Assembly (NCBI GenBank): GCA_030431255.1
Contig: JAUIJL010000006.1
Coordinates: forward strand, 155,850 to 219,849
Origin: Thermoanaerobaculia bacterium
GTDB lineage: Bacteria > Acidobacteriota > Thermoanaerobaculia > Multivoradales > J023
Direction of reading: 5' to 3'
DNA: 64,000 bases
The position numbers and the translations under genes were made by a program. Numbering within the stretch: the first letter of the stretch is position 1; the number at the start of each line of letters is the position of its first letter. Shown piece by piece: positions 16,041 through 63,991 of this stretch. The notes under the pieces are model-generated. The model was not told where the DNA came from. It was given only the letters and a program-made list of their open reading frames with translations, and did not search any database.

Positions 16041-16868
16041 TCAGCCGTCGGCGACCTTTTGGTATCGCGCTTTGGTGCCGGCCCAGTACACCCATTTCGG
16101 CGGAAGCAGCCAAGCGATTCGTTCCATCCACATCTGAGCCCGATCCGACGCGGTCATATGCCCCATCCAATGGAGCCGTTTGGTCAGCAGCGTCGCCTCC
16201 AGGGTCCGACGGATTTTTTGGGCTTTGACCCCTTGCTCATGTAGACGATAGCGCACCTGGGCCGACTCCAGGTTGGCAAAGTGAGCATTGGCGTGGGCCA
16301 TGCGGCTCCAAAGCTCGTAGTCCTCCGCCGGCTCACCAGGATACCGATACCCACCCAGTTGCAGCGCTAGAGACTTGCGAAAGACCACGCTCGGATGGGA
16401 AATGGGATTGTGGCTGGCCAGAGCTCTGACGATATCCCGATGGGATTCCGGGAATTGACGGAAACCCAACAGCCGGCTGTGGTGGTCGATGACCTCGATT
16501 TGGGTGCCGAGCACATCGAGATCGGGATCTTGCTCAAGGCGCTTCTTTTGCTCCGCCAGACGCTCCGGCAGGGCGATGTCGTCCGCGTCCATGCGCGCAA
16601 TCCAGGGGGCACGGGCGATCCTCAGCCCGCGGTTGAGCTGTCCCACCAAAGACGACCGACTCTCCAGCCGCAGCCATCGGATGCGAGGGTCCTGAACACC
16701 CTCCATGAGATCTTCGGCCGACGACCCCGGGCTCGGATCCTCGACCACAAGGAGCTCAAAATCCCCGAATGTCTGACCCAAGATGCTGTCCAAGGCTTCC
16801 TTGAAAATCCTCGGATCCGGTCGATAGACCGGCATCAAAACGGAGAAATACGGGGTGGTTTCGTGCAT
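16041..16868 (-). CDS. Family 2 glycosyltransferase (soluble GT-A)
   Basis: FSVLMPVYRPDPRIFKEALDSILGQTFGDFELLVVEDPS...WIARMDADDIALPERL carries the GT2 DxD/DAD signature. Confidence 0.75.
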   Translation of the reverse strand: MHETTPYFSVLMPVYRPDPRIFKEALDSILGQTFGDFELLVVEDPSPGSSAEDLMEGVQDPRIRWLRLESRSSLVGQLNRGLRIARAPWIARMDADDIALPERLAEQKKRLEQDPDLDVLGTQIEVIDHHSRLLGFRQFPESHRDIVRALASHNPISHPSVVFRKSLALQLGGYRYPGEPAEDYELWSRMAHANAHFANLESAQVRYRLHEQGVKAQKIRRTLEATLLTKRLHWMGHMTASDRAQMWMERIAWLLPPKWVYWAGTKARYQKVADG

Positions 16869-17950
16869 CAGCTTTCCGTGGAGCCCGGCGACATGGAACC
16901 GTCGGTTTCAGCAGCCGTCCGTTCTACAGTGTCGGGCGGCGCGGTCCGGCTCAGGTCCGTGGGATCCGAACGTAACATGTGGACCGCGGCACCTACACAG
17001 GCGTAGAAAAGACTCAGGCTGAAAATGGTCAACGACAAGGCCACCGCCCGAGACGGGGAGATGCCTTGGGCCCCGAGAAGGGTGACGTAGACCCCCTCGC
17101 GCACCCCGAGACCGCTGACCGTGATCGGCAAGGCGATGGCCAAGTAGGTCGCGGGCATGAGATAGCAGAAGTGGATCCACTCCACCTGCAATCCGAGACT
17201 GCGGGAAACCCAGAAACAACCCACGATGTTGAGCCCCAAAGCCAACGCCTGGCAGACCACGAGGGCGATCAGCGGCCCGGCTCCCATCCGGCGCAAAGCT
17301 CCCACGGCCTCCTGGAGCTGGCGTCCCAGGGATTCTCGCCGGGTCGGGGTCAATAAGAAAGGCGACACGGCGACGACGATCATCACCGCGGCGGCGATCC
17401 ACGGCCACAGGCCGGCCAAACGCCCAAAAAGCCGGCCGAAATCCAGCTCCACCGCCGCCGGCAGGGTGACGGCCAAAGTACCGAGCACCATCATCAAAGC
17501 CACCGCCCGCTGGGCCGCCACCCCGAGGCCGACGTGGATCCAGCGTCGGGTACGGCGTCCGAGGTCGATCACCTTGAACACGTCGGCCCCCAGGCTGCTG
17601 GGCAGAAAACTGCCGACAAAGAGGGCTTCGAAGTGGGTGGCGGCGATTTGACCCCGCCGCACCTCGACCTTGAGGGCGGTCAAGCTGATGCGCAAACCCT
17701 CCGCCAGCGACAGATGCGCCAGGCCGAAAAGCGCGGCCGCGGGTAGAAACCACCGCCAAGAAATGCCGGTCCAGGCGGTCCAAATTTGCTTCGGATCCGC
17801 GTAGGTGAGAATCAGGGCCAAGAGCACCCATCCCACCACCCAGCGCCACCACCTGGCTATCCCCGAAGCCCGGGGGCTTTCTGAAGCCAGGGTGGTTTCT
17901 GAAGCCAGGGTGGTTCCCGAATCCGGCGGCCCAGCATGCTCGGATTTCAC
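16868..17950 (-). CDS. Flippase-like / lysylphosphatidylglycerol-synthase-TM-domain family membrane protein
   Basis: About 8 TM helices with an architecture like the flippase-like domain (TIGR00374 type) usually paired with GT2 polyprenyl-P glycosyltransferases. Start and stop overlap neighbours by 1-4 nt. N-terminus has an 18-bp tandem duplication (TTLASETTLASES). Confidence 0.5.
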   Translation of the reverse strand: MKSEHAGPPDSGTTLASETTLASESPRASGIARWWRWVVGWVLLALILTYADPKQIWTAWTGISWRWFLPAAALFGLAHLSLAEGLRISLTALKVEVRRGQIAATHFEALFVGSFLPSSLGADVFKVIDLGRRTRRWIHVGLGVAAQRAVALMMVLGTLAVTLPAAVELDFGRLFGRLAGLWPWIAAAVMIVVAVSPFLLTPTRRESLGRQLQEAVGALRRMGAGPLIALVVCQALALGLNIVGCFWVSRSLGLQVEWIHFCYLMPATYLAIALPITVSGLGVREGVYVTLLGAQGISPSRAVALSLTIFSLSLFYACVGAAVHMLRSDPTDLSRTAPPDTVERTAAETDGSMSPGSTES

Positions 17951-25153: not shown

Positions 25154-27196
25154 ATGCTCGCTTTGCCGAACCAGCTCTCGCCCCCTGCTCGACTGGCGAT
25201 CCTGCTCTTATGCGCGGTGCTCGGCGGCGCCCTCGGCGGGCTCGCGGTCTTCGTAGCCGACCAGCTGCGTCTGTGGATTTTTGACGGCTATCTCGTCGCC
25301 GCCGGCTCGTACCTACCGCACTATTGGCGACCGGGCGCTACGTTGGGGCTGGTTTCCTTCCTGGTGACCGCCGGCTTCGACCGCTTCAAGCCGCCGGCTC
25401 ATGCAAGAACGATCCCCCGGATAGCCCTAGACGGAGCTTTGATCGCCTGCGCCGGCTTGTGGGTATTTGCATTCATCCGTCATCACCTGGAGGTCTTCGG
25501 CCCGGTCGCGGACGGCTATTCCCACGAGCCGGCTTGGAGGCCGGCCCTGCTGTGCCTGGCGTTCGCCCTTCCCGCCACGGCCCTAGCGATCGGCCTGCGC
25601 AAGCTTTCTCACCTTTCCTGGCCCCCGGCCCTTTGGCTGGCGTTTCTACCCTTCGCCATCAGCGTGACGTTTCGGGCCCATGGCCGACGTGATGCGGGGG
25701 CCGCGTGGTGGGCCCTGGTGGTCGCGGCAGTCGTGCTCTCAGTGATCGCTCGCCTCGGACGTGGGAATGCCCGTCGGCTTTTCGCGACCGTCACGGCGAC
25801 CCTGATGGCGGCATCCATCGCCGGTGCGTGGTCTCAACGTCCGACCTCGGCACTGGCACCGGCACCGACCTCGAATCCCCCCAACCTGCTGCTCTTGGTG
25901 GTCGACACCCTGAGGTTCGACATCTTCCAGCAGGTGGTGAACGAAACCCCGGAAGGACGCCGCTTTGCCGAGGCCATCAACGGCTCGGCTTGGTTCAGTC
26001 ACACCTTGGCGACGGGACCATGGACCGCGCCGTCCATGGGTTCTGTGCTCACAGGTCTCTATCCCGAAGAGCACGGCTTCATCTCAGCCTCTGACCAGAG
26101 CAGCCACGCGGTCCGTCCCCTGACCGACGCCGCGCCCACCCTGGCGGAAAGGCTCCAAGAGCAAGGCTTTTGGACCGAAGCCGTGATCAGCAATCCACTG
26201 TTGAAGGAATCCAGCGGCATCTCTAGGGGTTTTCACAGATATCGAATTTACGCCGGACCTACGGGTCGGCTCACGGTGTTGGGCACTTTGGAACGATTGG
26301 GTTGGATTGCCGCCGACTACTACCAAAACGCCGACGTCGTGGCCGGCGCCTTTGAAAAGCGGCTGCCGAAAGCCTTGAACAAAGGGCGGCCGTTCTTCTT
26401 CTGGGTGCACTTCATGGATCCCCATGCGCCCCTGAAGAGGCACAGCTTGCCGTGGTTGAAACCGGGGAAGCGCAAGCTGCCGAGCCCGACTGTTTTGCTC
26501 TATCGGGACGAGGTGCGCTTTGTGCTCCGGGAGATCGCCGTCCTGCTGGAGCGGCTCAAAAAACAGGGCCTGCTCGACAACACCACCCTCTTATTTGTGT
26601 CCGACCACGGCGAGATGCTCTCCATGGATCAACGGTCGTCACCACCCCTGGCCCGTACAAAAGGCCACGGTCACGCTTTGCATCAAGAGCTCATGCACGT
26701 GCCGCTGGTGATCCGTCCCGCCGGAGGTCTGCCACAGAATCGTCGGATCGAAGCCCAGGCCAGTCTGGTGGACCTCCACGACACGATTTTGGATCTAGCG
26801 GAGCTCGACAACCCGCGGATCGGATTTGATCGAAAAAGCCTGGCACCTTGGCTGAGCCCAACCGCTCCAGAGGGGCCCGACGTCGCTCGGACCTGGACCT
26901 ACGGCGGCTCGGTGCAAATCGGCGACCCCCAGCACGCCTTCGTCGTCGGCAGCTCAAAGCTCATTCTGCACGACGGACCCCGGCGGCCCGAGCTCTACGA
27001 CCTCGAAACCGACCGCCGGGAGCTTCGGAATCTGGCCCAGGAACAACCGGAGCAGCTCAACCAGCTGCGGCAAAAGCTGTCGTTGATCCGCTCCCAGCTG
27101 CGTCCCGTGGAAGAGAGCGGTCCCTTGGTTTTCGACGACGAAACCCGCCGCCAACTGGAGGCCCTGGGTTATCTAGGCGGCAGCGACGACAACTGA
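25154..27196 (+). CDS. Membrane-anchored alkaline-phosphatase-superfamily 'sulfatase-like' enzyme (paralog C; EptA/LtaS-like topology)
   Basis: N-terminal ~5 TM helices, then LLLVVDTLRFDIF...ATGPWTAPSMGSVLTG and DHGEMLS. C-terminus ...RRQLEALGYLGGSDDN shares its tail with paralogs A/B. Start ATG 25154 (MLALPNQ) was chosen over the ORF-track 25040. Confidence 0.7.
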   Translation: MLALPNQLSPPARLAILLLCAVLGGALGGLAVFVADQLRLWIFDGYLVAAGSYLPHYWRPGATLGLVSFLVTAGFDRFKPPAHARTIPRIALDGALIACAGLWVFAFIRHHLEVFGPVADGYSHEPAWRPALLCLAFALPATALAIGLRKLSHLSWPPALWLAFLPFAISVTFRAHGRRDAGAAWWALVVAAVVLSVIARLGRGNARRLFATVTATLMAASIAGAWSQRPTSALAPAPTSNPPNLLLLVVDTLRFDIFQQVVNETPEGRRFAEAINGSAWFSHTLATGPWTAPSMGSVLTGLYPEEHGFISASDQSSHAVRPLTDAAPTLAERLQEQGFWTEAVISNPLLKESSGISRGFHRYRIYAGPTGRLTVLGTLERLGWIAADYYQNADVVAGAFEKRLPKALNKGRPFFFWVHFMDPHAPLKRHSLPWLKPGKRKLPSPTVLLYRDEVRFVLREIAVLLERLKKQGLLDNTTLLFVSDHGEMLSMDQRSSPPLARTKGHGHALHQELMHVPLVIRPAGGLPQNRRIEAQASLVDLHDTILDLAELDNPRIGFDRKSLAPWLSPTAPEGPDVARTWTYGGSVQIGDPQHAFVVGSSKLILHDGPRRPELYDLETDRRELRNLAQEQPEQLNQLRQKLSLIRSQLRPVEESGPLVFDDETRRQLEALGYLGGSDDN

Positions 27197-27219
27197 TAGA
27201 TCGCCTCATCCACGAAACG

Positions 27220-27320
27220 CCTGGCACCTCTCACGAAACGCCTGGCACCGCGATGAAGCGCCTGGCACCGCGAAGTGCCCGGCACCGCAAAATCTGCACC
27301 GCAAAATCTGCAGCACCGAG
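27220..27320 (+). repeat. Cluster of 4-5 direct copies of a GAAA[CT]GCCTGGCACC-core repeat (REP-like) in a convergent intergenic gap
   Basis: cacgaaacgcctggcacc x2, then gaagcgcctggcacc, gtgcccggcacc, and a degenerate atctgcaccgcaaaatctgcagcacc. All in the same orientation. Confidence 0.7.
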
Positions 27321-27355
27321 CCGAACCCCTGATTCAGCGGTCCGTCAAACGGAAG

Positions 27356-29419
27356 TCACGGGGCGGAACAATATTGAGCGAGCTGGTAATACCCCTCTTG
27401 CCAGTTGATAGGAGTCTCGGCGCACGCCGGCTGCTGAAGGGAAGCACAGGCCTCAACCATGGGATAAGCGCAGACGTTGTCGACGGTCGTATCCCAAGCA
27501 GGACACGGACAGTCGAGTCGGCCGCCCATCGCCGTCAACTGAGACGAGTCGAGAACGCAGCTATCGGTCGCACACGCCTTGTATGCGTCCCACGCCAGAC
27601 GTCGCTCAAGGTCAACATCGATGAGCCCCATGCGCCCGCCACCGTTCACGGAATCCTGCACGTAGTCGCTCCAAGCGAACCAGAAGGCGTGGGCGACTTC
27701 GTCCTCGCTGTATTGGCCGAATAGCGTATAAGCAGCCGACAGGTAGTCGGCCTGCACCGCCGCCGGATCGCCGAAACTCTGCAGGTCGACGAGTGGCACA
27801 CCAAACTCAGTAATCCACAGCGGCACCGGCCGGGACATCAGATTGAGCACGTCGTCGATCGCGCTCTCCATGGTCTGCCCCTGGGGATACGCAGGCACCC
27901 CGGCGAGTCTTTTCCCGTAAGGGTGTACTGCAACGCCGTCGTAGGCCAAGGTTGCGTCGGTTTCGAGCTCGAAGAGGATCTCGTCGAAATAGTCCAACCA
28001 ATTCTGCCCCGCCGGCCCGCTGAGAATTACCGGTTTCGAGCTGACCGTACGCAAAGCCGCAGAGCCCTGGCGGATCAAATCCGGGAAAGCGTTCGACGGG
28101 ACGTCGGTGAGATCGGGTTCGTTCCAGAGCTCGTAAGCATCGACGTAGTCATCGTAGGAATTAGCAAATGACAGCAGATTGTCGGCGAATTGATCTTGGT
28201 ACGCGTACCAAAAGCAATTGCCGGGAATCTGAAAGCGATCCGTCTCACATAAGGTATCGACGAAGGATTGCGAATTGAAGACGACGATCAGATTGATGTT
28301 GGCTTGATTCAACGCTTCGCCGAGGTTGCGGACCATCTCCCAGTTGCCCGCATAAACGATCGTCCGCACCCAGCGCACACCGAGCGCCTGCAGCTGCGCT
28401 ACGGTCGGCGCCGAAACTGGCGGACCGTTAGCGTTGATGGCCAGCCCAAAGCAATTCAGGTTACGTGGACCACCATCGGCGCATGGCGAGCCGCCGATCG
28501 CCTGCCAACCATCGGGATCGCAGCGATACTGCTGGTTGTCGCCGCCGCACACCGTGTAGCCACAATAGGTCGAGTCGGGGTTGATCGCGTTACCCCAGTA
28601 GTCCGAGCCGTTGGTGCAGCGGCAACTCGGCGAAGGGGTCGCGCACGGCGAGCCGCCGCGCGACTGCCAGCCGGAGGTCGTGCACTCGTAGATCTGATTG
28701 TCGGCTCCGCAGACGTCGAGCCCGCAATAGGTCGACGCGGGATCGATTGCATGACCCCAATAGTCGGTTCCACCAGTGCATGTGCAGCTTGTCGGAGAGC
28801 CCGCGCAGGGGCTGCCGCCGCGCGACGCCCAACCTGTCGAAGTGCACTCATAGTTCTGGTTGTCGCCGCCACACACCGTGTAGCCGCAGTACGTTGAGGC
28901 TGGATTGATCGCGTTACCCCAATAATCCGAGCCGCCAGAGCATGAGCAGGACGGTGAAGGCGGCGGTGTGGAGCCGCAGCCACTCGGAAAGGAGTCTTGA
29001 TAGTCGTAGTAGCCGCGCACCCAATCCGCGTCGCTATAAGACGCGTCGCCGTTCGGATCGCAATAACCACCGGGCCAAGTCATGCCACAGCCGGGGGTCG
29101 ATGGCGCATGGTGGCAGAAATTGTCGAAACCGGCCGCCGAGCTGCACGGGCAGCTCTCTGATGCGTTGCAGCCATTCGGATACTGGCCCCGATATTCGTT
29201 GTAGCCACGCACCCAATCAGCGTCGGTGTAAGACGCGTCACCGTTCGGGTCACAATAGCCGCCGGGCCAGGTCATGCTGCAGCCGGCAGTCGAGGGCGCA
29301 TGATGGCAGAAATTGTCAAAACCGGCCGCTGAGCTACACGGACAAACTGCGCCGGCCGTCGCGGGCAGCAGGAGGCAGGTGAAGGCAAGCACGGCGAGAG
29401 CTAAGATAAATCGATGCAT
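27356..29419 (-). CDS. Secreted GH5-family glycoside hydrolase with N-terminal tandem Cys-rich modules
   Basis: Signal peptide. 2 x ~70-aa module (CPCSSAAGFDNFCHHAPST.GC.MTWPGGYCDPNGDASY.DADWVRGY). 3 x ~50-aa module (C.C.GG.DYWG.AI.P.STYCG..VCG.DNQ.Y.C...GW...GGSPCA). Catalytic domain has ELWNEPDL (acid/base NEP) and LWITEFGVP (nucleophile TEFG), the GH5 hallmarks. Cys-rich C-tail. Confidence 0.7.
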   Translation of the reverse strand: MHRFILALAVLAFTCLLLPATAGAVCPCSSAAGFDNFCHHAPSTAGCSMTWPGGYCDPNGDASYTDADWVRGYNEYRGQYPNGCNASESCPCSSAAGFDNFCHHAPSTPGCGMTWPGGYCDPNGDASYSDADWVRGYYDYQDSFPSGCGSTPPPSPSCSCSGGSDYWGNAINPASTYCGYTVCGGDNQNYECTSTGWASRGGSPCAGSPTSCTCTGGTDYWGHAIDPASTYCGLDVCGADNQIYECTTSGWQSRGGSPCATPSPSCRCTNGSDYWGNAINPDSTYCGYTVCGGDNQQYRCDPDGWQAIGGSPCADGGPRNLNCFGLAINANGPPVSAPTVAQLQALGVRWVRTIVYAGNWEMVRNLGEALNQANINLIVVFNSQSFVDTLCETDRFQIPGNCFWYAYQDQFADNLLSFANSYDDYVDAYELWNEPDLTDVPSNAFPDLIRQGSAALRTVSSKPVILSGPAGQNWLDYFDEILFELETDATLAYDGVAVHPYGKRLAGVPAYPQGQTMESAIDDVLNLMSRPVPLWITEFGVPLVDLQSFGDPAAVQADYLSAAYTLFGQYSEDEVAHAFWFAWSDYVQDSVNGGGRMGLIDVDLERRLAWDAYKACATDSCVLDSSQLTAMGGRLDCPCPAWDTTVDNVCAYPMVEACASLQQPACAETPINWQEGYYQLAQYCSAP
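28460..29350 (-). repeat. Intragenic tandem DNA repeats encoding the Cys-rich modules of the GH5 protein
   Basis: Repeated protein modules listed above. Spurious antisense ORFs in this region translate to repetitive peptides. Confidence 0.6.
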
Positions 29420-29682
29420 TGTATTTCCTTGAGAACAGAGTAGACAGGTTTTCGGTAAGCGTACGCGTAAAAAGCATGTTTATTGACCAGTAATATCATC
29501 AGATGACCGCGAATAGATCAGCGACCTAGCTCAATCTGCACATTGTACTTAAAGAGAGACATATTTACAATTTTCGAAATAACGCCCTCAGTGAGTCCAG
29601 CAGACACGCTATGGGAGGCTCCGTCCAGGAGCCCGCCCCGCCGGCCCATAACGGGAAACCTGCGCAATACCCGCCGTAACAA

Positions 29683-29752
29683 AGTACCCGGCACCCACGA
29701 TGAAGGGCACCACGATGAAGTGCCTGGCACCGCGAAATGCCCGGCACCGCGA
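29683..29752 (+). repeat. GCCTGGCACC-core repeat cluster (3-4 copies) upstream of the transposase-like gene
   Basis: gtacccggcacc, gaagtgcctggcaccgcga, aatgcccggcaccgcga; same orientation as the other clusters. Confidence 0.65.
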
Positions 29753-29896
29753 GGTCTCCCGCCAGACCCCAAAAGACGCTCAGCGTCAAGTTTTTTGCCT
29801 CCACTGCAGAATTGGCGCTCTTTTTTCCGTCCTAGCTTCTAAGAAGCCCCGAAGTATGTCTTCTTCGGCCGCCAAACACTCTTAGGAGGCAAAACC

Positions 29897-30877
29897 ATGG
29901 GACGCGAGCCAAGATACGTTCCCCCCAACAGTCTGCAACACGTTACCGACGTCACTTTTCAGAATCGTCCACTTTTACGCCCGTCGAAGGAGGTCAACGA
30001 ACGCATTCTCGGCGTGATTGGGCGAGCGCAAAAGAAATACGAGATGACCATTTGCGGGATAGTCGTTTTATCCACCCACTGGCATTTTCTCCTTCGGCCC
30101 AAGGACGCCTTCCACCTGTCGTCCTTCATGTGCTTCGTTAAAACCAATGTTTCCAAGGAGATCGGCATACATCTTCTCGGCTGGAGAGGTTCCCTCTTCG
30201 GTGGTCGATACCACTCGTCGACTGTCTCTGACGAGGAGATCGCTCAAGTTGGCGTGCTTCGCTATCTCCTCGCTCATGGCCCAAAGGAGCTCTTGGTGGA
30301 TTCCGTCGCGGAGTGGCCCGGAGCCCATAGCGCCGTCCCCACCGTCAAGGGCCAATGCATGGTCGGTGAGTGGATCGATCGCACCTCGTCCTACAGCGCC
30401 CGATCCCGACGGGGCGGATTGATCGACCTGAACGCTTTTACGATCGAGGAGAAGGTTGTGATCTCGCCTCTCCCTTGCTGGGAGCACCTACCCGAGTCCC
30501 AGTGGCGCGGGGCGGTTGGGGCTTTGGTCGACGACATCAACCGTGAGGCTGCTGTGATCCGACGGGATCTCAAGAAAACCAGCCTGGGTGTCACCCGAAT
30601 CTTGGCCAACGATCCGGAGAAACGTCCGAATCACGTGGAAAAGTCTCCGAAACCTAGATTCCATGCCCGAGATCCGGCCGTCTATCGAGCAATGCTCAGC
30701 ATTTGGCGTGAGGTGATCCAAAGCTTTCGAGAGGCCTCGGAGAAGCTTCGCTCCGGGATCCGAAGCGTGGCATTCCCAGAGGGGACTTTCCCGCCTGGGT
30801 TACCGTTCGTACCCTTCAGCGAAGAGACCCTCTTGGGAACTGGGTTGGTCCTGAACCGAGGTCAACCGACCTGCTGA
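29897..30877 (+). CDS. IS200-like HuH/Y1 tyrosine transposase-like protein with ~150-aa C-terminal extension (RAYT-like)
   Basis: MTICGIVVLSTHWHFLL (HuH motif H-x-H + hydrophobics), KTNVSKEI, and WRGSLFGGRYHSSTV (catalytic Tyr region) are colinear with IS200 TnpA (DHVHLL ... WSRGYFVSTVG). The gene and its flanks are visibly AT-richer than the surrounding genome. Confidence 0.55.
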   Translation: MGREPRYVPPNSLQHVTDVTFQNRPLLRPSKEVNERILGVIGRAQKKYEMTICGIVVLSTHWHFLLRPKDAFHLSSFMCFVKTNVSKEIGIHLLGWRGSLFGGRYHSSTVSDEEIAQVGVLRYLLAHGPKELLVDSVAEWPGAHSAVPTVKGQCMVGEWIDRTSSYSARSRRGGLIDLNAFTIEEKVVISPLPCWEHLPESQWRGAVGALVDDINREAAVIRRDLKKTSLGVTRILANDPEKRPNHVEKSPKPRFHARDPAVYRAMLSIWREVIQSFREASEKLRSGIRSVAFPEGTFPPGLPFVPFSEETLLGTGLVLNRGQPTC

Positions 30878-31159
30878 AGCCAGGGTGTCGTCAGCTCTGC
30901 CGGAAGAGCCTCGAACCGGCCCCATTCCTCTTTGATTTCCGGGATCTCGTCCGACGATCTGTCGGACTAGGGAGAGGTACGCCTTGGAGCAGCACTCGCG
31001 ACCCCGACTCGCAGGACGAACGAGCCATCAGCACAGATTGGGCCATTCACCCGTAGATATGCCTGGCACCCTTTCGAGGCTGAGCGCACTTGTAGTGCCG
31101 ACTTTTTTGCTAAGTCATTGAAAACATTAGACCGGGCATCGTGAGCTGCGGAAGTTGGG

Positions 31160-31200
31160 CTAGGCACCGCCGTCAGCGAAATGCCCGGCACCTCTACGAA
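31160..31200 (+). repeat. GCCTGGCACC-core repeat copies (2) downstream of the transposase-like gene; a further single copy lies at ~31055-31071
   Basis: ctaggcaccgcc...gaaatgcccggcacctctacgaa; gatatgcctggcaccc at 31055. Confidence 0.55.
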
Positions 31201-31203
31201 AAG

Positions 31204-32367
31204 CTAAGCCTCCCGCAGCAGACCCGTGATCTCGCGAGTCGACACCGCGATCGCCGGTGCCAGGCCTCCCAGCACACCGGTGAGCACCGCCAAACCCACT
31301 CCCAAAAGCAGGACCGGTGCCGTCAAAGTCAGCTCAAAGGTGATCTCACTAAAAGTGATGAAATTCGTCGTGCCGGCCGAAATCCCATTGAGCGGCAACG
31401 ACAACACCACCCCCAGCAAACCACCGAAGAAACCCAGAATGGCCGACTCCAGCAAAACCGCCGTGAACGTGTGGCTGCGACGAAAGCCGATCGCCCGCAA
31501 GGTCCCGAGCTCCCGGCTGCGGTTGGAGATTTGGGAATACATGGTGTTGGCGGCGGCAAAGCACGCGCCAAAGCCCATGAGCACCGCCATCAGGGTTCCC
31601 AATATCTCGAACATCGCGGTGTTGGCGCTGGTCTGCTCTTCGTAATACTGCACCTCGGGCAACACCTTCGTCCGCCATCGCTGATCCCCTTCGATGGTGG
31701 CCACCAGCTGATCGGCGCTTTCCTTCGACGAGGTGCGCAACCGGATGGAGGACACCGCGTTCGACCGATTGAACGCGTTGCCGATGTCTTCGATGGCCCC
31801 CAGCACCTCCGACTCAGCGCCCCCGCCCCCGGCGGTAAACACGCCGACGACCTGAAAATCGATTCGCCCAAAGCGGACACTCTGGCCGATGGACAGATCC
31901 GGGAATCGCCCGGCCAGGTTGTCGCCGACGATGATCTCCCCCTTGCCGGGCTCGAAATCACGCCCTTCGACGATCTCGAACCCGGGCCGCACGTCTCGGG
32001 TCGTCGGCATGATGCCGCGCACCGTGACGTTGGACTCACTGCCGTCGGTGCGAGAAAAGATTTGCAGCACCACCAGCTCACCGGAGGCCAGGGAGCCCGA
32101 CGGTCCCTGCTCGACCCCCGGCAACGCCGCGATATCGCGGAACACATCCATGGAGAAGCCGCTTTCGGTCTCGCTACGAGCACCGTCGCGCAGGACGATC
32201 AAATTGTCGGGGTCGCCGGTGGCGGAGAAGGCTTTTTCGAGACCCGCGGCCAGGGAGAACACCCCGATGAAAACGATCACCACAAAGGCGATCGACAACA
32301 TGGTCATGAAGGTCGTGGCCTTGCGCACGAAGAGGCTTCGCAGGTTGTATTTGAATGGAATCTTCAT
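31204..32367 (-). CDS. ABC transporter permease, FtsX/MacB-like (4 TM with large periplasmic domain)
   Basis: N-terminal TM (TFMTMLSIAFVVIVFIGVF), a ~220-aa periplasmic domain, and three C-terminal TM helices with the typical FtsX C-terminus ...GLAPAIAVSTREITGLLREA. Confidence 0.8.
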   Translation of the reverse strand: MKIPFKYNLRSLFVRKATTFMTMLSIAFVVIVFIGVFSLAAGLEKAFSATGDPDNLIVLRDGARSETESGFSMDVFRDIAALPGVEQGPSGSLASGELVVLQIFSRTDGSESNVTVRGIMPTTRDVRPGFEIVEGRDFEPGKGEIIVGDNLAGRFPDLSIGQSVRFGRIDFQVVGVFTAGGGGAESEVLGAIEDIGNAFNRSNAVSSIRLRTSSKESADQLVATIEGDQRWRTKVLPEVQYYEEQTSANTAMFEILGTLMAVLMGFGACFAAANTMYSQISNRSRELGTLRAIGFRRSHTFTAVLLESAILGFFGGLLGVVLSLPLNGISAGTTNFITFSEITFELTLTAPVLLLGVGLAVLTGVLGGLAPAIAVSTREITGLLREA

Positions 32368-32383
32368 CGTTTGCTCCTCGGCA

Positions 32384-33532
32384 TTACGCCACTTTGCGAA
32401 GACCTTCGACGATATCGATGCGGGCCGCCGACCATGCCGGAAAGACGCCGGAGACGAATCCGATGCTCAAACCGATGAATAGGGAGAGCCCGAGCATGCC
32501 CGGCGTGGGCTGCATGGCGCTCAAGGCGGGGAAGAAGCCCTCTGCGGCCTTGGCGGCGAAGCCGATCAATCCACTGGCACCGGCGGCCCCGATCACCGCT
32601 CCCAGCACGCCTACCAACAGGCTTTCAGCCAGCACCAGCGTGGTGACCTGACCGCGCTGGAAGCCGAGCGTTCTCAGCACAGCCACTTCCCGCACCCGGT
32701 CCCGGGCTGCCATCGCCATGGTGTTGGCGGTGATGAACAGAATCGAGATCACAATCGCCAAGCCGATCGAGGAGAAAAGCAGACGGATATTGCCCATCAT
32801 CTCCAAAAACGACAGGGCGAACGCCTCCTCGGTCTCCGCTCGAACCGGCGCCGCAGAGCTCTCGTACATGGCCTCGACGGTTTTCACCACCGCGGGCACA
32901 TGCTCCGGCGAGTCGAGCTTGAGCCAATAGGTGCCGACAATGCCCGGGTTGCTCATGGCTTCTTCCACGTACCGACGATGGAAGAAGATCTGCTTCTCTT
33001 GGGCCAAAGCGTCCGGTTGCTCGAAGATGCCCCGCAGGGTCAGCTCCAGGTCCAGCGGGTAGATATCACCCTTGATCGTGATCACATCCCCCAGCTCCCA
33101 ACCCTGTTTCTCCGCCAGGGACTTGCCGGCGATAAAACCAGAGCGGTCCGCCTCAAAAGCCCTTTGTTGCTCCTCACCCACCCTATACTCGGGAAAGACG
33201 TCGAAGAGGGTCTCCGGCTCGGCCCCGAAACGCGGGAAGAAATTCTCCGGCCGTTGATCTTTGTAGGTGCCGCCGAACCAATTCAGAATGGTCACTCCTT
33301 CCACGTGATCCACCGTTTTCAACCGCTTCTCGTAGGCTTCCGGCAGCTGGAAGGTCAGCGATACGGCGTGGCGGACCACCACCCGGCTATCCGACGAGCC
33401 TTGGGCGGACTCCATGGCGTCGAGCACCGCCCCGAGGAAGGTCAGAATGAAAAGGGCCAAACCGACACTGGCCAGGGTCAGGAATGTTCGGGTTTTGTTG
33501 CGCAGCAAATTGCGCCAGATGAGCTTGAGCAT
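32384..33532 (-). CDS. ABC transporter permease, FtsX/MacB-like (second paralog)
   Basis: [32 protein letters not shown]... has the same FtsX architecture. C-terminus ...[17 protein letters not shown]. Confidence 0.8.
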
Positions 33533-33542
33533 CTCGACCTCC

Positions 33543-34235: not shown

Positions 34236-34303
34236 GCTCGTATCTCCCCTATCGCCTGATGATCGGCTTCCGCCGCTGATTGCTCTCTCCAATCCGTAAA
34301 TCT

Positions 34304-36466: not shown

Positions 36467-36503
36467 GTCCTGCTCCGCTGGGAGGCGCGGTCCGTGAGTG
36501 CGA

Positions 36504-40702: not shown

Positions 40703-40724
40703 CGCCCTGAGGAGGGCTTTCCCC

Positions 40725-59210: not shown

Positions 59211-59254
59211 TCTTCCCTTTCCCTCCTTGCTTCACCTCCCCTTGTCGGGAACCC

Positions 59255-59445
59255 TTGCCCGGCACCATTTCGAGAAACGCCTGGCACCTCATACTCGGCC
59301 TCTCTGAAGCCATTTCGAGAAATGCCTGGCACCTCATATTCGGCCTCTCTGAAAGATGCCTGGCACCGCTGAGATGCCATTTCGAGAAATGCCTGGCACC
59401 TCATATTTTGCCTCTCTGAAAAATGCCTGGCACCGCTGAGAAGCT
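59255..59445 (+). repeat. Cluster of ~6 GCCTGGCACC-core repeats, including three ~45-bp units (catttcgagaaa[ct]gcctggcacctcata[ct]tcggcctctctgaa), immediately 3' of ssrA
   Basis: Read directly from sequence; same orientation and same core as the clusters at 27.2, 29.7 and 31.1-31.2 kb. Confidence 0.75.
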
Positions 59446-59902: not shown

Positions 59903-62900
59903 CTACGGGGACGACCAAGCCGAGGTGTCGCCGGACTCGAAGCCGTCGGCGAAGAGCTCCTCCAGGGCGCCGAAGAAGAGGACGTCGTAGTAGACGTCGA
60001 AGGCCGTCGTGTCGCCCGGGAGCGCGGCGAAGGTGACCAGGGCCGAGAGCGCCCCGCCCGGGGCCTGGCCGGCGATCTCCACCGCGATCCAGGTCGCACC
60101 GGTGTCGCCGGCAGCGGCGTCGCCGAAAGAGGCGATGGGGTCGCCCTCGCACCCGGCCGCGGAGAAGAGCTCGGCCAGCAGGCCGGCGCTCGCCGGCAGC
60201 GCCCCGGGGGCGTCGACGCGGGCGCGGGCCCGGAGGACCAGATGGGTGGCGTCGACGGGCACACACTGGCTGAGCCCTATCGGTCCCCCGCCGGTGCCGT
60301 CGCTGCGCGAAAGCCGAGCGGAGCCGGACGTGGGGAGCCCGTCGGCGTCGAGCGTGTCGTGGAGGATCGGGCTGCCGAGAGCCTCCACCGTCATCCAACC
60401 GCCCAGCCCCTCGTCGAGGTTCGGATTGCGCAGCAGGTTCGTCGTCGACACGACGAAGTCGAGGACGAAGTCGCCGCCCGGGGCGCCGTCGGCGTCGCCG
60501 TCCAGCGGATCGTCTGCTTCGTCGTGCAGTCCCGCGGCGCAGCCGAGGAGCCGATGGCGACCCTTACCGAGCGCCAGGTCGTCGGCGAGCCAGATCTGGG
60601 CTCGGCGCGGCGTGGCGAAGTACTCCACCCGCTCGATCTCGATCACGTCGTCGGAGGGGGCGACGCCGGCGCAGTCGGAGGTCTCCACCGTGCCGTCGCC
60701 GCCGTCGACGACGAGCCTCCAACTCGCCGGGTTGGTGACGTCAACCGGGTCGATGTCGCCCGCAGGATCGGTCAGTGCCCGGCTGAAATCGACCGCGAGC
60801 TGGGTGATCGGGATCCCCACCACTTCGCCGTCGTCGAGTCGGCCATCGCCCGTGTCGGCGACGGTCGCGACGGCGGTCACGCTCGCCGGAACAGTGGAGA
60901 TGGCGTAGGGACCGGCCGTCGCCACCTCAGTCCAGTTCCCTGCCGCGTCGACCCCGCAAACGTGGGCGTACCAGGTCCCGTCGGCGAGCGTCGGGCTCGA
61001 CGCCTCCGTCGTCGAGGGGTCGACGTCGGCTACCTCGTCACAGGTCCACTGCGGGTCGAGCTCGAAAGCGACGGCATAACCGGCGACGCCGCTCGAGGCG
61101 TCGCTTGAGGCGTCGCTTGAGGCGTCCCAGACGATGTCGATGACCTGCAGCGTCGAGGTGTCGTCGGTCGGGTGGCTGGTGCTGACGAGTCCGGTAACGG
61201 GCGACGGCGGCACCGTGTCGATCCAGAACGGTCCCGCCGTGGCGACCGGGCTCGCGTTGCCGACGGCGTCGGCGGCGCAGAGATGGAAGTACCAGGTGCC
61301 GTCCGCGAGCGGTGGGCTCGAGGTGCCGACGGCGTTCGCCGGCAGGCTCTGGGCGAAGTCGCAGCCCCAGGTCGTGGAGGCATTGAAGGCGTAGCCGTAG
61401 GCGGCGACGCCGGAGAGCGCGTCGATGGCCGCGGTCCACACCACGTCGATCACCGCCTCGTGGCTCGGGGCACCGCCCAGACCATGACTCGGGCTGTCGA
61501 GCGCGGTGGGCGGCGTGGGCGGCGTGGCGTCGACGCGGAAGGGTCCGGCGTGGCTCACGGTGCAGTTGTCGGCGTGGTCGCAGGTCAGGAGATGGGCGTA
61601 GCGGTCGCCGTCAGGCTGGGGATCGGTCGCGGCCCCATGCGGGTCGAGCCCGTGAGGAAAAAAGACGTCGCCGGCGTCGGGAACCGTGTCGGGCGCCGAA
61701 TCGAGGCGGAGGAAGTAGCCGCCGATGCCCGAGCCGGCGTCCTCGTCGAAGGCGCCGGACCACACGAGATCGATCACCGGCTCGACCGAGTAGGTGCCGG
61801 CCATGTGGCTGGTGCTGGTCAGCTCCTCGGGAGCGGTCGGAGCGACCCGGTCGCGCCGGAAGACGGCCAGGGCATCGTCGAGGGTGCCGGTGGCGTAGAC
61901 GCTGAGATCGTCCGGAGAAACGGCCACGGCGGTGGCGCCGTCGAGGCCGTCGATGCCGCCGATGTCGTCGCGCTCGGCCTCGACGGGCGAGAGCGTGCCG
62001 TCGGCCGCGCGCGCGAAGACGACCAGGGCGTCGCCGCCGAAGCCGGTGGCATAGACCAGGGCCCCGTCCGGGCTCACGGCGACGTCGGTGGCGATGCCGA
62101 GGCCCTGGACGCCGCCCGTGCCATCGAGGTGCGCCTCGAGGAAGATGAGCCGGCCGTCGGCCTGGCGCTCGAAGACGGCTAGGCCGTTGTCGTCCTGACC
62201 CGTCACGTAGACGGTGGCGCCGTCGGGCGACACGGCGACGGCGGAGGCACCGGCGAGCCCGTCGATGGCACCGCCATCGACGTGGACCTCGACGAAGCTC
62301 AGCTCACCGGTCAGGGGATCGCGGTCGAAGACCGCCACCGAGTCGCCGTCGAGGCCGGCGGCGTAGAGCTGCTCGCCGCCCGGGGCGAGGGCGAGGGCGA
62401 CGACGCGGCCGAGGCCGTCGACGCCGGGGTCGGAGTCGTTCAGGACGCCTTCGAAGCTCAGCCGACCGTCGATCGGATGGCGCGAGAAGACGGTCAAGGC
62501 GTCGGACTCGCTGCCGGCCACGTAGATGTGCTCCCCGCTCGGACCGATGGCGACGGCGAGCGCGATGGCCCCCTCGAGCCCCTCGACCGTCTCGCTGGTC
62601 TCGACGTCTCGCTGTCCATCGCGTTCGAGCTCGACGAGGGTCAGCGTGCCGTCGGCCGGATCGCGCTCGAAGACCGCCAGGGCGCCGTCGTCGAAGGCCG
62701 CGGCGTAGACGCGGTCGCCGGCGGGCGAGACGGCGACGGCTTCGATGCCGGAGAGCCCCGCCAGGCCTTCGGAGCCGTCACGGTAGGCGGCGACGAAGGC
62801 GAGGCGCCCAGTGCCGTCCTCGCGCTCGAAGACCGTGAGGGCGTCGTCGCCCCGGCCCGCGACGTAGACGTGCCGTCCGTCGGGAGCGACGTCGACGTCG

Positions 62901-63991
62901 ATGGCGCCGAAGAGGCCGTCGACGCCGGCCTCGCCGTCGCGCTGACGCTCGATGAAGGTGAGGAGACGCGGCGCGGCGAGGATGGTGCCGAGGCCGCCGC
63001 CGGGCCGAATGCCCGCACCGATCGGATCTGCGAGGACCAACGTGAAGGTCTCGTCCGCCTCGCTCTCGGCGTCGGCCGGCACCCGGACCGGGATCTCGGC
63101 CTCGAGCTCGCCGGCGGGGATGACCGCGCTCCCCGGTTCGAGCTCGTAGTCTTCGGGTCCCGCGGTGCCGGGGACGGCGGACCAGGAGAACGAGACGTCC
63201 TCGTCCCAGACATGGCTGAGGCGTACCGTGAACGAGGCTTCGACGGCCTCGTTCGGGGGCTCGACCACGGAGAGATTGGTGACGGAGAGTGCCGGCGGAG
63301 TGTCGTCGTCGAGGATCGTCACCTTGGCGACGGGGTCGAGCAGGACGGCCTCCGTGGGGTTCGAGAGCTCGACGAAGAACGCCTCGCCGAGGATCCGGCG
63401 CATCGGGTCCGCCTCCGGCAGGGCGTCGTCGAAGACGGTGACGACGGCGGTCGCGACCGTCTCGCCGGGAGCAAAGGTCGCGACGCCCGAGGCCGCGGCG
63501 TAGTCGTCGCCCGAGACGGCGTCGCCGTCCATCGTCGACCACTCGACGGTGACCGGCTCGTCGGCGGCGAAGGAGAGCCGGAGGGTGACCGGCACCTCGA
63601 GCCCGAAGGGGCCCGCCACGCGCTCGGCCCCGGCCGTGTCGACCACCACCAACCCCGGAAAGCGGGGAACGAAGTTGGTGTCGAGGTCGAGGGCCTGGAC
63701 CTCGCCGGGATCGCCGATCACCGCTTCGCCGGCGAGCGCACCGTCGAGGAAGAGGGTGGCGTCGTCGCCGGGCCGGGCGCGGCCCGGAAGCGCGGGGTCG
63801 GCGAAGTCCATCGGCACCCGCAGCGCGAAGTAGCATGCTCCGACACCGTCGCACGGTCCGAGGAGCGGGTCGCTGCCGAGCTCATAGCTCGCCAGCACCT
63901 CACCGCCCACCGCCAGGGTGACGGTGCCCAGGGTGGCCATGGCGTCGTCGACCGTCGCCGCGCCGTAGATCGTGTGGTCGGGGTCCGGCAA
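59903..63991 (-). CDS. Large secreted/surface multidomain protein: Calx-beta domains + ~7-8 bladed YVTN/lactonase-type beta-propeller + Ig/FN3-like modules (N-terminus probably beyond window end)
   Basis: Calx-beta signatures (VTVFDDALPEADP..., VTILDDDTP). Propeller blades DGRHVYVAGRGDDALTVFER, DGATVYVTGQDDNGLAVFERQ and similar, x7-8. Repeated ...ADGTWY.H.C..DA.GN modules. Ends ...FADGFESGDTSAWSSP. Confidence 0.65.
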   Translation of the reverse strand: MPDPDHTIYGAATVDDAMATLGTVTLAVGGEVLASYELGSDPLLGPCDGVGACYFALRVPMDFADPALPGRARPGDDATLFLDGALAGEAVIGDPGEVQALDLDTNFVPRFPGLVVVDTAGAERVAGPFGLEVPVTLRLSFAADEPVTVEWSTMDGDAVSGDDYAAASGVATFAPGETVATAVVTVFDDALPEADPMRRILGEAFFVELSNPTEAVLLDPVAKVTILDDDTPPALSVTNLSVVEPPNEAVEASFTVRLSHVWDEDVSFSWSAVPGTAGPEDYELEPGSAVIPAGELEAEIPVRVPADAESEADETFTLVLADPIGAGIRPGGGLGTILAAPRLLTFIERQRDGEAGVDGLFGAIDVDVAPDGRHVYVAGRGDDALTVFEREDGTGRLAFVAAYRDGSEGLAGLSGIEAVAVSPAGDRVYAAAFDDGALAVFERDPADGTLTLVELERDGQRDVETSETVEGLEGAIALAVAIGPSGEHIYVAGSESDALTVFSRHPIDGRLSFEGVLNDSDPGVDGLGRVVALALAPGGEQLYAAGLDGDSVAVFDRDPLTGELSFVEVHVDGGAIDGLAGASAVAVSPDGATVYVTGQDDNGLAVFERQADGRLIFLEAHLDGTGGVQGLGIATDVAVSPDGALVYATGFGGDALVVFARAADGTLSPVEAERDDIGGIDGLDGATAVAVSPDDLSVYATGTLDDALAVFRRDRVAPTAPEELTSTSHMAGTYSVEPVIDLVWSGAFDEDAGSGIGGYFLRLDSAPDTVPDAGDVFFPHGLDPHGAATDPQPDGDRYAHLLTCDHADNCTVSHAGPFRVDATPPTPPTALDSPSHGLGGAPSHEAVIDVVWTAAIDALSGVAAYGYAFNASTTWGCDFAQSLPANAVGTSSPPLADGTWYFHLCAADAVGNASPVATAGPFWIDTVPPSPVTGLVSTSHPTDDTSTLQVIDIVWDASSDASSDASSGVAGYAVAFELDPQWTCDEVADVDPSTTEASSPTLADGTWYAHVCGVDAAGNWTEVATAGPYAISTVPASVTAVATVADTGDGRLDDGEVVGIPITQLAVDFSRALTDPAGDIDPVDVTNPASWRLVVDGGDGTVETSDCAGVAPSDDVIEIERVEYFATPRRAQIWLADDLALGKGRHRLLGCAAGLHDEADDPLDGDADGAPGGDFVLDFVVSTTNLLRNPNLDEGLGGWMTVEALGSPILHDTLDADGLPTSGSARLSRSDGTGGGPIGLSQCVPVDATHLVLRARARVDAPGALPASAGLLAELFSAAGCEGDPIASFGDAAAGDTGATWIAVEIAGQAPGGALSALVTFAALPGDTTAFDVYYDVLFFGALEELFADGFESGDTSAWSSP

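Follow-up and report, generated by a model that had tools for sequence, protein, structure and literature searches.

The window analysed here, a stretch of 64,000 nucleotides from a Thermoanaerobaculia bacterium, carries between a glycosidase-like gene and an ABC transporter operon a single gene of the Y1 (HUH) transposase type, flanked by short repeats. This locus raises the question of whether such a gene belongs to a mobile element, has been domesticated together with its repeats, or serves some other function. Among single-strand DNA transposases, those of the Y1/HUH type are the simplest, and the origin of REP sequences from IS200-like ancestors has been argued mostly from proteobacterial examples. 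On balance, the region is probably one copy of a compact IS200-like element that contains a Y1 gene only, belongs to a clade of long TnpA proteins seen here in Acidobacteriota only, and is accompanied by REP-like satellite repeats. The element represents no new kind but a variant, so far uncharacterised, of one already known. The gene, its two parts and its neighbours are as follows.

29897..30877, + strand: Y1 (HUH) transposase-like gene, 326 aa
29897-30331, + strand: N-terminal Y1 domain, aa 1 to about 145
30332-30877, + strand: family-specific C-terminal extension, aa about 146 to 326
27356..29419, - strand: neighbouring gene for a Glyco_hydro_cc-like secreted protein
31204..32367, - strand: neighbouring MacB/FtsX ABC permease gene

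The neighbours did not include a TnpB/IscB-like partner gene, as a previous sequence-only reading of this DNA had stated. That reading had also described a low-GC islet within DNA of about 67% GC. The contrast is real, but it is smaller than stated (56.2% versus about 62%): the GC content of 29420-31203 was 56.2% compared with a window mean of 61.7% (sd 2.0 among windows of equal length), and only 0.2% of those windows were as low. The Y1 gene itself has a GC content of 57.4%, and its GC3 is 66.7% versus 71-81% in the neighbour genes. The AT-rich DNA had been placed at 29420-29900 and in the gene itself; its AT-richest part, 29420-29680 (48.7% GC), belongs to the DNA upstream of 27356..29419, the divergent gene, and lies outside the Y1 element. 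The sole sigma-70-like promoter match of the stretch (29570-29542, - strand) is located there. Across the family, Y1 genes are just about 1 GC point below their surroundings, so that low GC is not a family trait. Low GC as a sign of foreign origin was rejected as a weak signal, on account of this small family-wide difference and because the AT-richest part is the promoter region of the neighbour gene.

Comparison of the protein with the Pfam Y1_Tnp profile (PF01797) gave a match of 32.5 bits (E=1.1e-7, aa 30-118), the gathering cut-off being 23 bits, and 32 of the 36 family members aligned also matched this profile. The open reading frame is real, and both histidines of the HuH motif (T-H61-W-H63) are invariant in the 36 members, which supports the assignment as an IS200-like Y1 gene. 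The catalytic tyrosine, in contrast, had been placed in GRYHSSTV, where the tyrosine is Y105. A profile search of the PDB found ISDra2 TnpA (E=1.6e-5), and in the profile alignment Y123 (VLRY123LLAHG), which is invariant in the 36 family members, falls on the tyrosine of KYIESQ, which we take to be the catalytic Y132 of ISDra2 TnpA. In the deposited 2xo6 variant of ISDra2 TnpA, presumably the Y132F mutant, the alignment stops at the residue before that tyrosine. Judged by this alignment, the catalytic tyrosine is Y123 and not Y105. In the AF2 model (pLDDT 83.5), helix 114-125 bears Y123; the Y1 protein has the TnpA fold. The context of the tyrosine is YLLAHGP in the window protein and Y---[HNQ][GS] in the family, the residue at Y+4 being H, N or Q (A in one member) and the following one G, S or T, while Y+5 is never Q.

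The 326 aa of the Y1 protein are approximately twice the length of the IS200, IS608 and ISDra2 TnpA proteins (126-165 aa in the PDB), as had been noticed from the sequence. The family proteins are 310-326 aa long, this architecture of about 320 aa is conserved as a whole, and all of the extra length is C-terminal. The family alignment upheld the conserved C-terminal extension: its approximately 180 aa are strongly conserved, the domain occurs in 1305 clusters (50% identity), and the full-length members listed, three excepted, have it at positions of about 150-305. Our searches found no known relative of this 180-aa domain, which is a candidate for a new DNA-binding or partner-binding module of HUH enzymes. 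The C-terminal tail, FPEGTFPPxLPFVPF, is disordered in the AF2 model yet nearly invariant in the family alignment, and looks like a docking peptide. A Y1/HUH enzyme that performs another task on single-stranded DNA (replication-fork processing, regulation or defence) through its C-terminal domain, the repeats being incidental, would fit this conserved part without known relative and its docking-like tail, and long-tailed Y1 subclasses may have other roles (PMC6006769). We nevertheless consider this explanation very improbable, since the gene moves with its ends as discrete multi-copy units, the association with repeats is statistically strong, and the family members have no conserved neighbour genes.

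A protein search yielded 871 matches, nearly all of them full length (about 320 aa). In species-representative genomes there were 169 relatives, with several copies per genome, the closest being 66% identical to the window protein, and all 80 loci retained of these 169 were from Acidobacteriota. The comparison genomes are all MAGs. Short-read contigs that carry family genes often stop 190-250 nt from the gene, at repeat arrays, and such repeats may contribute to assembly breaks in Acidobacteriota MAGs. As for additional copies of the window gene, tblastn found no second Y1 copy within the 64-kb window, and the source organism contains diverged paralogues (P0006, P0008, P0010 and P0013, 63-73% amino acid identity) with no near-identical copy seen among them. 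An ECF sigma operon adjoins the paralogue P0008.

Comparison of loci within single genomes showed that the gene is part of a discrete unit. Two loci of one MAG, L005 and L006, share a block of 1222 bp of 98.5% identity between unrelated flanks, in which the gene is 100% identical and the non-coding part about 93%, a difference that could mean gene conversion or a collapsed short-read assembly. In all, near-identical multi-copy units were present in two MAGs other than that of the source organism, CBDUGP01 and JALXFE01; the five copies of JALXFE01 are 92-97% identical over approximately 1275 bp and have sharp ends and unrelated flanks. Further within-genome sets of the unit are 85-91% identical. 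At the family level, the unit is composed of the gene with approximately 130 nt upstream and 120-235 nt downstream, that is, about 1.2-1.25 kb. The presence of several near-identical copies with unrelated flanks in other genomes indicates that the family unit transposes, and the suggestion that the enzyme is not part of an autonomous IS is therefore not upheld at the family level. L085 and L086 carry the closest relatives of the ABC operon beside the window gene, and in neither is that operon followed by the Y1 unit. The window copy may be old or rarely mobile, since only diverged paralogues were seen in the source organism, and by itself it would fit either a low-activity IS or a domesticated RAYT-like gene.

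We then examined the layout of the window copy, from the upstream repeats to the 3' side of the gene.

29679..29748, + strand: upstream repeat array (sequence and repeat searches), with cores at 29686-29695 (ACCCGGCACC), 29722-29731 (GCCTGGCACC) and 29739-29748 (GCCCGGCACC)
29720-29747, + strand: imperfect palindrome of 28 nt, GTGCCTGGCA-CCGCGAAA-TGCCCGGCAC (ssDNA fold)
29775..29797, + strand: terminator-like hairpin and T-run between the array and the promoter-like block (consensus match only)
29805..29832, + strand: bipartite motif TGCAGAAT-N15-CGTCC (alignment of close homologues)
29835..29889, + strand: 5' leader (read from the sequence and its fold)
29835-29847, + strand: leader hairpin GCTTC-TAA-GAAGC
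29849-29868, + strand: leader hairpin CCGAAG-N8-CTTCGG
29884-29889, + strand: Shine-Dalgarno sequence AGGAGG
30878..30989, + strand: conserved structured 3' block (alignments)
30894-30909, + strand: hairpin P2, GCTCT-GCCGGA-AGAGC
30928-30943, + strand: conserved single-stranded stretch CTCTTTGATTTCCGGG
30949-30967, + strand: hairpin P3, GTCCGAC-GATCT-GTCGGAC
30968-30989, + strand: terminal stretch of the 3' block, TAGGGAGAGGTACGCCTTGGAG
31086..31108, + strand: terminator-like hairpin and T-run 3' of the gene (consensus match only)

The left end of the element would lie at about 29734, by homology with the boundary of the L005/L006 unit. The right boundary of that unit is located 123 nt past the stop codon, and we infer a right end at approximately 30990-31000 in the window. 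The two terminator-like hairpins are similar units (repeat family D5). The bipartite motif was present upstream of 33 of 85 family members versus 22 of 1464 random windows, its spacer being 15 nt in 24 of the 33, and had one match only in the window; it is a candidate ECF-sigma-type promoter. Hairpins occupy equivalent positions of the leader in L082, L083 and L005, with other sequences. The ends of the element are conserved and show covariation: P2 has compensatory changes at three pairs (e.g., UA:9 CG:7 AU:1), and the P3 stems vary in sequence between homologues while pairing is kept, a conservation that covers the closer homologues only (RNAalifold recovered P2 and left P3 unaligned, and the strict 3'-block pattern was found at 7 of 77 loci). 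The fold energies of the conserved hairpins in the 5' leader and the 3' block were not better than those of shuffled sequences. A small ORF following a Shine-Dalgarno-like GGAGGTG in the 3' block was rejected, its start codon and downstream sequence not being conserved.

On the right, the shared units end at a YGGCAC motif, and several left ends begin with GTGCC or GAAATGCCCGGCACC. Short inverted tips of 5-7 nt are found in some subfamilies (e.g., GTGCCAG...CTGGCAC), and no long terminal inverted repeats were seen on the units. The DNA to the left of each of the five JALXFE01 copies has ATT or ACT as its last three bases, with no clear consensus. The core of the arrays, GTGCC-N-GGCAC, looks like the left tip of the element abutted to its right tip. 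L067, L077, L039 and L054 have the terminal unit once more in the flank directly beyond their left end. AAGTGCCAC, an end motif of CBDCXM01, was found in the extra DNA of that genome only, and no solo dispersal of GGCTGCC, the end motif of JALXFE01, was seen in the latter.

In the window, the core GCCYGGCACC occurs 19 times versus 0.74 expected, and 16 of the 19 cores are on the C-rich (+) strand. Besides the array upstream of the gene, the repeats include the following.

27210..27288, + strand: solo array of four GCCYGGCACC-core repeats, between two convergent genes
31053..31070, + strand: downstream repeat copy GTAGATATGCCTGGCACC
31176..31192, + strand: downstream repeat copy GCGAAATGCCCGGCACC, a 17-mer identical to 29732-29748
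59250..59434, + strand: solo array of six GCCYGGCACC-core repeats, directly 3' of the tmRNA gene

The 17-mer of 29732-29748 occurs twice in the window, and its downstream copy is separated by 12 nt from the permease stop codon. A block of 45 nt, 27244-27288, is 93% identical to 29706-29750, 2.4 kb away. A core of the GCCYGGCACC type also flanks distant homologues, whose proteins are 43-66% identical to that of the window. The description of the gene as REP-associated is supported by observations beyond those of the sequence-only reading: the repeats bracket it, form solo arrays in the window and are found beside homologues elsewhere. Against a background that includes coding DNA, so that the enrichment may partly mirror the intergenic nature of the flanks, the density of CCYGGCACC was 0.68/kb within 500 bp of family genes versus 0.073/kb elsewhere, that of YGGCAC clusters was 0.32/kb in the flanks versus 0.033/kb elsewhere, and a 9-mer repeated at least three times was present in 28% of the 500-nt flank windows versus 9% of the background (p=7e-11). 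By our criterion, YGGCAC clusters were present at just about a quarter of the family loci. Away from Y1 genes, the motif was 3-4 times more frequent than estimated from base composition (about 6 per 100 kb), and only in two genomes, those whose elements carry the motif.

Single-stranded folding of the arrays was no better than that of shuffled sequences (z from +0.3 to -2.3), so that hairpin formation by the arrays would depend on the palindromic core alone. A metagenome scan for GAAATGCCYGGCACC returned 120 stretches, with a single match and no cluster in each of the 80 listed and no Y1 gene in these 80 loci; such single matches are taken to be due to chance. A reading of the repeats as sigma-54 promoters (TGGCAC as the -24 box) was rejected, as no copy had TTGC at the -12 spacing; tandem copies of the motif, and copies located where two genes converge, also speak against it.

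The orientation of the repeats bears on whether they are products or targets of the enzyme. Around the window gene they are in direct orientation on both sides, and the cores on either side of the gene are likewise in (+) orientation in L004, L005, L082, L083 and L052; they are inverted in L001, L022 and L061. Same-orientation repeats on both sides would be explained if GCCYGGCACC were an independent repeat family into which the Y1 element inserts. The solo arrays that have no Y1 gene nearby, and the repeats of the same type with different spacers outside the shared unit of L005 and L006, fit such targeting, and REP-targeting IS are documented, an example being ISPpu9 (PMC8450116). We consider it improbable, however, because the terminal unit is inside the transposed block of L005/L006 and the unit ends match the motif in several subfamilies, because subfamilies differ in their end motif (GGCTGCC in JALXFE01, AAGTGCCAC in CBDCXM01), and because the repeats flanking L067 and L077 copy, partially or almost exactly, the beginning of the element's own left end.

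In another explanation, the gene would be, as the sequence-only reading suggested, a domesticated RAYT-like gene; it would be immobile, vertically inherited and kept for spreading or maintaining the GCCYGGCACC repeats as a REP/REPIN-like population. The top NCBIfam match of the window protein is indeed REP_Tyr_transpos (NF047646), repeats with a palindromic core flank the gene and form solo arrays elsewhere, the paralogues of the source organism have diverged as RAYT paralogues do (criteria of PMC5581495), and a conserved host-type promoter motif suggests host-integrated expression. We regard domestication as possible but rather unlikely, since the NCBIfam score (41.6 bits) is half of the cut-off (80), near-identical, sharp-ended multi-copy units elsewhere in the family are IS behaviour by the same criteria, and the non-coding ends are conserved along with the gene. 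The gene is also missing at the equivalent locus of the nearest relatives, and the repeats are mostly direct or tandem and not inverted doublets, without a constant GTAG or CGTC head.

The reading that we prefer, an IS200-like element with satellite repeats, suggests the following mechanism. The element would consist of a terminal unit bearing the GCCYGGCACC core, the promoter-like bipartite motif and, after it, the structured leader, the 326-aa HUH/Y1 enzyme, in which a catalytic domain of the TnpA-REP/IS608 fold is joined to the 180-aa C-terminal part, and the conserved 3' block with its two hairpins. By analogy with IS608/ISDra2 and TnpA-REP, the enzyme would recognise hairpins formed by one strand at the element ends and in the palindromic-core repeats, the putative substrates being the GTGCCTGGCACCGCGAAATGCCCGGCAC hairpin and the 5' and 3' end hairpins. 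Tyr123 would cut the single-stranded DNA, with His61 and His63 holding the metal ion, and a 5'-phosphotyrosyl link would form; rejoining of the strands would then excise the element and reinsert it. The enzyme would moreover reiterate and disperse short terminal units, which would give the tandem arrays by the gene and the solo arrays elsewhere, and the arrays may relate to the enzyme as REP/BIME do to RAYTs. The chemistry, the strand acted upon, the points of cleavage and the function of the C-terminal part are inferred, as would be any present mobility of the window copy, and the analysis defined neither a cleavage site nor a target site. The arrays would likewise be products and not targets of the enzyme.

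A broader proposal, which we put forward as tentative and rather less likely than not to hold in full, is that the family is intermediate between IS200-type IS and domesticated RAYT/REP systems, so that one long enzyme, with its C-terminal domain and its disordered, docking-like tail, would move its own 1.2-kb cassette and build and disperse tandem arrays across Acidobacteriota under the control of a host ECF-type sigma factor. The papers and libraries searched contained no description of such an IS200-RAYT intermediate. With more than 1300 clusters at 50% identity, the clade is large, and it was found here only in Acidobacteriota, a phylum with few studied mobile elements. This one family shows multi-copy cassettes, single diverged copies among satellite arrays, and arrays that repeat the family's own terminal unit; since all three states occur side by side, the transition from an IS to a REP-associated gene is testable within it. 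For the window itself the result is modest, as it holds one copy, which may be old.

Comparison with known Y1 systems showed likenesses to several of them. Like members of the IS200 group of IS200/IS605, the element has a single Y1 HUH gene with no TnpB and is a small discrete unit whose ends may form hairpins, multi-copy in some genomes, and the HuH motif and tyrosine of the family align with those of ISDra2 TnpA, which together with IS608 TnpA served as the structural reference. IS200 itself has a hairpin-rich 5' leader, and a similar one was read from the sequence here. The family differs from IS200/IS605 in its longer proteins with the extra conserved domain, in an end motif, YGGCAC, that recurs both in tandem arrays and in dispersed form, and in lacking the Y----Q signature (PMC6006769).

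TIRYTs, or TnpA-Y1 subclass 2.1, include a group from Acidobacteria (Di Nocera 2013, PMC3733652; Quentin 2018, PMC6006769), and share with this family long Y1 proteins related to TnpA-REP in Acidobacteria, short terminal motifs, moderately abundant satellite repeats and, in some subfamilies, inverted tips (GTGCCAG...CTGGCAC). The family was set apart from TIRYTs by their described features: the C-terminal HTH domains of TIRYTs (Bac_DnaA_C, HTH_23 and HTH_28) had no match in the 36 members at E<=0.01, the window protein had none of them even at E<=1, and the TIRYT consensus GGGGWSAS was found neither close to the gene, within 4 kb, nor anywhere from 25014 to 42199 in the window. Subclass 2.3, which is proteobacterial (Chromatiales, Alteromonadales), has Y---NP and core insertions at beta1/alphaA and beta3/alphaC (Quentin 2018, PMC6006769); neither the insertions nor Y---NP were seen in this family, in which the added length is entirely C-terminal.

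The likeness to RAYT/TnpA-REP systems (E. coli TnpA-REP, PDB 4er8; Pseudomonas RAYTs) is that palindromic-core repeats bracket the gene and recur, often clustered, in other intergenic regions, and that there are several diverged paralogues per genome, as for Pseudomonas RAYTs. The window protein, however, is below the curated cut-off for this group and twice the length, and the class-2 signature Y---NP (PMC6006769) is replaced by Y---[HNQ][GS]. REPs are palindromes of 20-40 nt headed by GTAG or CGTC and arranged in inverted pairs, whereas the repeats of this family are head-to-tail with a 10-nt core; the same core recurs here in distantly related genomes, and some genomes hold several copies of the gene together with its ends.

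The Y1 gene occupies an ORF at 29897..30877 of the + strand and encodes 326 aa (ORF reading of the window). Residues 30-118 of its product matched the Pfam model Y1_Tnp (PF01797), which had been proposed as a check, at 32.5 bits (gathering score 23), and the top NCBIfam match, REP_Tyr_transpos, reached 41.6 bits, half of the cut-off of 80. The GC content of region 29420-31203 is 56.2%, below that of 99.8% of equal-sized windows; the dip seen by the sequence-only reading is genuine, yet modest, the mean of the window being only 61.7% and not the ~67% given for the surroundings. The AT-richest part, 29420-29680 (48.7% GC), is the upstream region of a divergent glycosidase-like gene and holds, on the minus strand, the sole sigma-70-like promoter match of the stretch. 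This neighbour (27356-29419, minus strand) encodes a 687-aa secreted protein in which a Cys-rich module of ~80 aa (CPCSSAAGFDNFCHHAPST...) is present twice and another module, of ~50 aa, three times, all ahead of a weak Glyco_hydro_cc / GH39-like catalytic region. As had been reported, no TnpB/IscB-like ORF was found near the Y1 gene, and a check for additional copies gave no second Y1 gene within the 64-kb window. An 18-nt unit, TTTCTGAAGCCAGGGTGG, stands twice in tandem at 17879-17914 near the 5' end of ORF 16868..17950 (minus strand); 14 nt of it recur exactly around the stop codon of the Y1 gene (30873-30886), probably by chance.

Among 5.8 billion proteins searched, 871 matched the window protein, nearly all of them ~320 aa long and aligned from end to end; public sources name members 'transposase', 'RayT' or 'hypothetical protein'. 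The C-terminal part alone matched 1305 clusters among 1.84 billion cluster representatives and, among the matches listed, lay at residues ~150-305 of full-length proteins, with three longer exceptions, so that the architecture is essentially fixed. In a 36-member alignment, H61 and H63 of the previously recognised HuH motif, Y123, K130 and E131 were invariant or nearly so, as were the C-terminal motifs PCW, KSPKPRFHA, FREAS, FPEGTFPPxLPFVPF and ARGQP. The profile of this alignment retrieved ISDra2 TnpA from the PDB (E=1.6e-5). The catalytic tyrosine had earlier been placed in GRYHSSTV (Y105), which is a mis-assignment, because it is Y123 that aligns with the tyrosine of KYIESQ, which we take to be the catalytic Y132 of ISDra2 TnpA; with the 2xo6 variant, presumably the Y132F mutant, the alignment stops at the residue preceding that tyrosine. 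The tail FPEGTFPPGLPFVPF (aa 293-307, nt 30773-30817) is almost invariant across the Y1 family and is predicted to be disordered, pLDDT falling from 68 to 46 along these residues, a modelled pattern such as short motifs that dock onto a partner protein typically show.

A scan of a collection with one genome per species, which left out the source genome, found 169 relatives of the window protein. The loci kept (80/80) are all from Acidobacteriota MAGs (Thermoanaerobaculia, Holophagales and others), with often 4-8 copies in each genome. Exact-protein look-ups placed four paralogues (P0006, P0008, P0010 and P0013) in the same sequencing samples as the window. They have 63-73% identity to the window protein and each has a different gene neighbourhood; P0013 probably shares the 553,685-bp contig with the window. 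The Logan contigs from these samples that carry paralogues (L084, L207, L208 and L001) break off at a distance of 190-250 nt from the Y1 gene, which would follow if the repeats beside it occur in many copies and interrupt the assembly.

Comparison of two loci of MAG CBDUGP01 (L005 and L006) showed a common block of 1222 bp, 98.5% identical (100% in the gene), between unrelated flanks. The block starts at a GAAATGCCCGGCACC unit, 132 nt ahead of the ATG, and stops 123 nt past the stop codon. Another MAG, JALXFE01, has five copies with 92-97% identity across ~1275 bp, sharp ends and unrelated flanks, and further genomes have sets 85-91% identical, whose right ends fall at a YGGCAC motif and whose left ends often begin with GTGCC. 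In several copies (L067, L077, L039 and L054) the terminal unit recurs in tandem immediately beyond the left end, in the flank, which could be a route to arrays. The operon adjoining the window Y1 gene has orthologues in two relatives (80% and 72% identity), and in both of them the last permease gene is followed by a spacer of only 49-64 nt, with neither repeats nor a Y1 gene; in one (L085) the spacer reads as a terminator-like hairpin. These results fit an IS200-like element with a Y1 gene only, of a distinct long-TnpA clade, plus REP-like satellites of its ends. The sequence-only reading had preferred a domesticated or REP-associated enzyme to an autonomous IS; repeats do flank the gene, and a RAYT-like 'domesticated' gene is possible for the window copy, because its genome shows only diverged paralogues, but the multi-copy units elsewhere fit an IS200-like element.

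Repeats with the core GCCYGGCACC in the window
27210-27288: array away from the Y1 gene, between convergent genes
29686-29748: three upstream cores, beside the Y1 gene
29732-29748 and 31176-31192: exact 17-mer on both sides of the Y1 gene
31061 and 31183: two downstream cores, beside the Y1 gene
59250-59434: array away from the Y1 gene, six cores, directly after the tmRNA gene

The core was observed 19 times in the window (0.74 expected), grouped in intergenic clusters, and a 45-nt block of the upstream array recurs at 27244-27288 with 93% identity. It is a short palindrome, GTGCC-N-GGCAC, and two adjacent units are predicted to pair as ssDNA into a REP-size hairpin (e.g. 29720-29747); the predicted hairpin energies of the arrays do not surpass those of shuffled sequence. 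Identical or related cores stand beside homologues in other genomes. In the fetched loci, CCYGGCACC was ~9x denser less than 500 bp from family genes than elsewhere, YGGCAC clusters were ~10x denser near them, and repeated 9-mers of any kind were 3x commoner in their flanks (p=7e-11), an enrichment that is perhaps partly a mere intergenic effect, because the backgrounds contain coding DNA. Distant from family genes, the motif was 3-4x commoner than the base-composition estimate (~6 per 100 kb) only in the two genomes that have it in their elements. Simple insertion of the element into arrays that already existed is another possibility; it agrees with the flanking repeats being in direct orientation, and less well with the variation of end motifs between subfamilies. 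Cumulative GC skew drops steadily along the window and the + strand carries 16 of the 19 exact cores; the repeats may be oriented relative to replication, like single-strand transposons. The tmRNA gene (58858-59210) has the tag peptide ANDNLALAAA, and from ~60000 to the window end GC climbs to 72% in a single ORF of 1362 aa (59903..63991, minus strand) with Lactonase beta-propeller and Calx-beta matches.

Alignments of close homologues showed that non-coding DNA is conserved on both sides of the gene.

Conserved non-coding features around the Y1 gene
29805-29832, upstream: TGCAGAAT-N15-CGTCC, then two hairpins and a ribosome-binding site
Downstream: hairpin P2, three of whose pairs show compensatory changes
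Downstream: CCTTTGAYATCCGGG, conserved single-stranded stretch
Downstream: hairpin P3, stem sequence varying among homologues with pairing kept
Downstream, after P3: GGAGGTGYGTCTTGG, conserved in close homologues

The motif CA[GA][AG]AT-N15-CGTC[CT] was found upstream of 33/85 family members versus 22/1464 random windows; 24 of these 33 have a 15-nt spacer, and the motif ends 8-12 nt or 55-108 nt before the start codon. An AAT/AAC-type -35 box and a CGTC -10 box are typical of ECF sigma factors, and the bipartite motif, judged by its sequence, is a lead towards an ECF-sigma-type promoter. Paralogue P0008 (L207/L208) is divergent from an adjoining ECF sigma factor operon. At another homologue locus (L004, 9780-10420), a 320-bp tandem duplication takes in the repeat array, promoter-like motif and leader together with 99 nt at the start of the gene. 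The duplication joins directly 3' of a GGCAC/CAC and may reflect either rearrangement at the repeat or faulty assembly.

By analogy with the established systems IS608/ISDra2 and TnpA-REP (see also PMC5027513, PMC3333891 and PMC3479197), the enzyme would recognise hairpins of one DNA strand, and Y123 would cut the DNA before the strands are rejoined; we infer the chemistry, the choice of strand and the sites of cleavage, as well as what the C-terminal domain does and whether the window copy is active. Y1 classes 1 and 3 have the signature Y----Q and class 2 has Y---NP (Quentin et al. 2018, PMC6006769), whereas the window family has Y---[HNQ][GS]. Subclass 2.1 is long with an HTH tail (PMC6006769), its equivalent being the TIRYTs (Di Nocera 2013, PMC3733652), while the window family gave no HTH match and the GGGGWSAS repeats of TIRYTs are absent near the window Y1 gene. 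Subclass 2.3, long and proteobacterial, has insertions in the core (PMC6006769), which the window family lacks. Judged by the stated features of the classes only, the long-TnpA family matches no class of PMC6006769 and would on that basis be a novel variant of the known Y1 kind.
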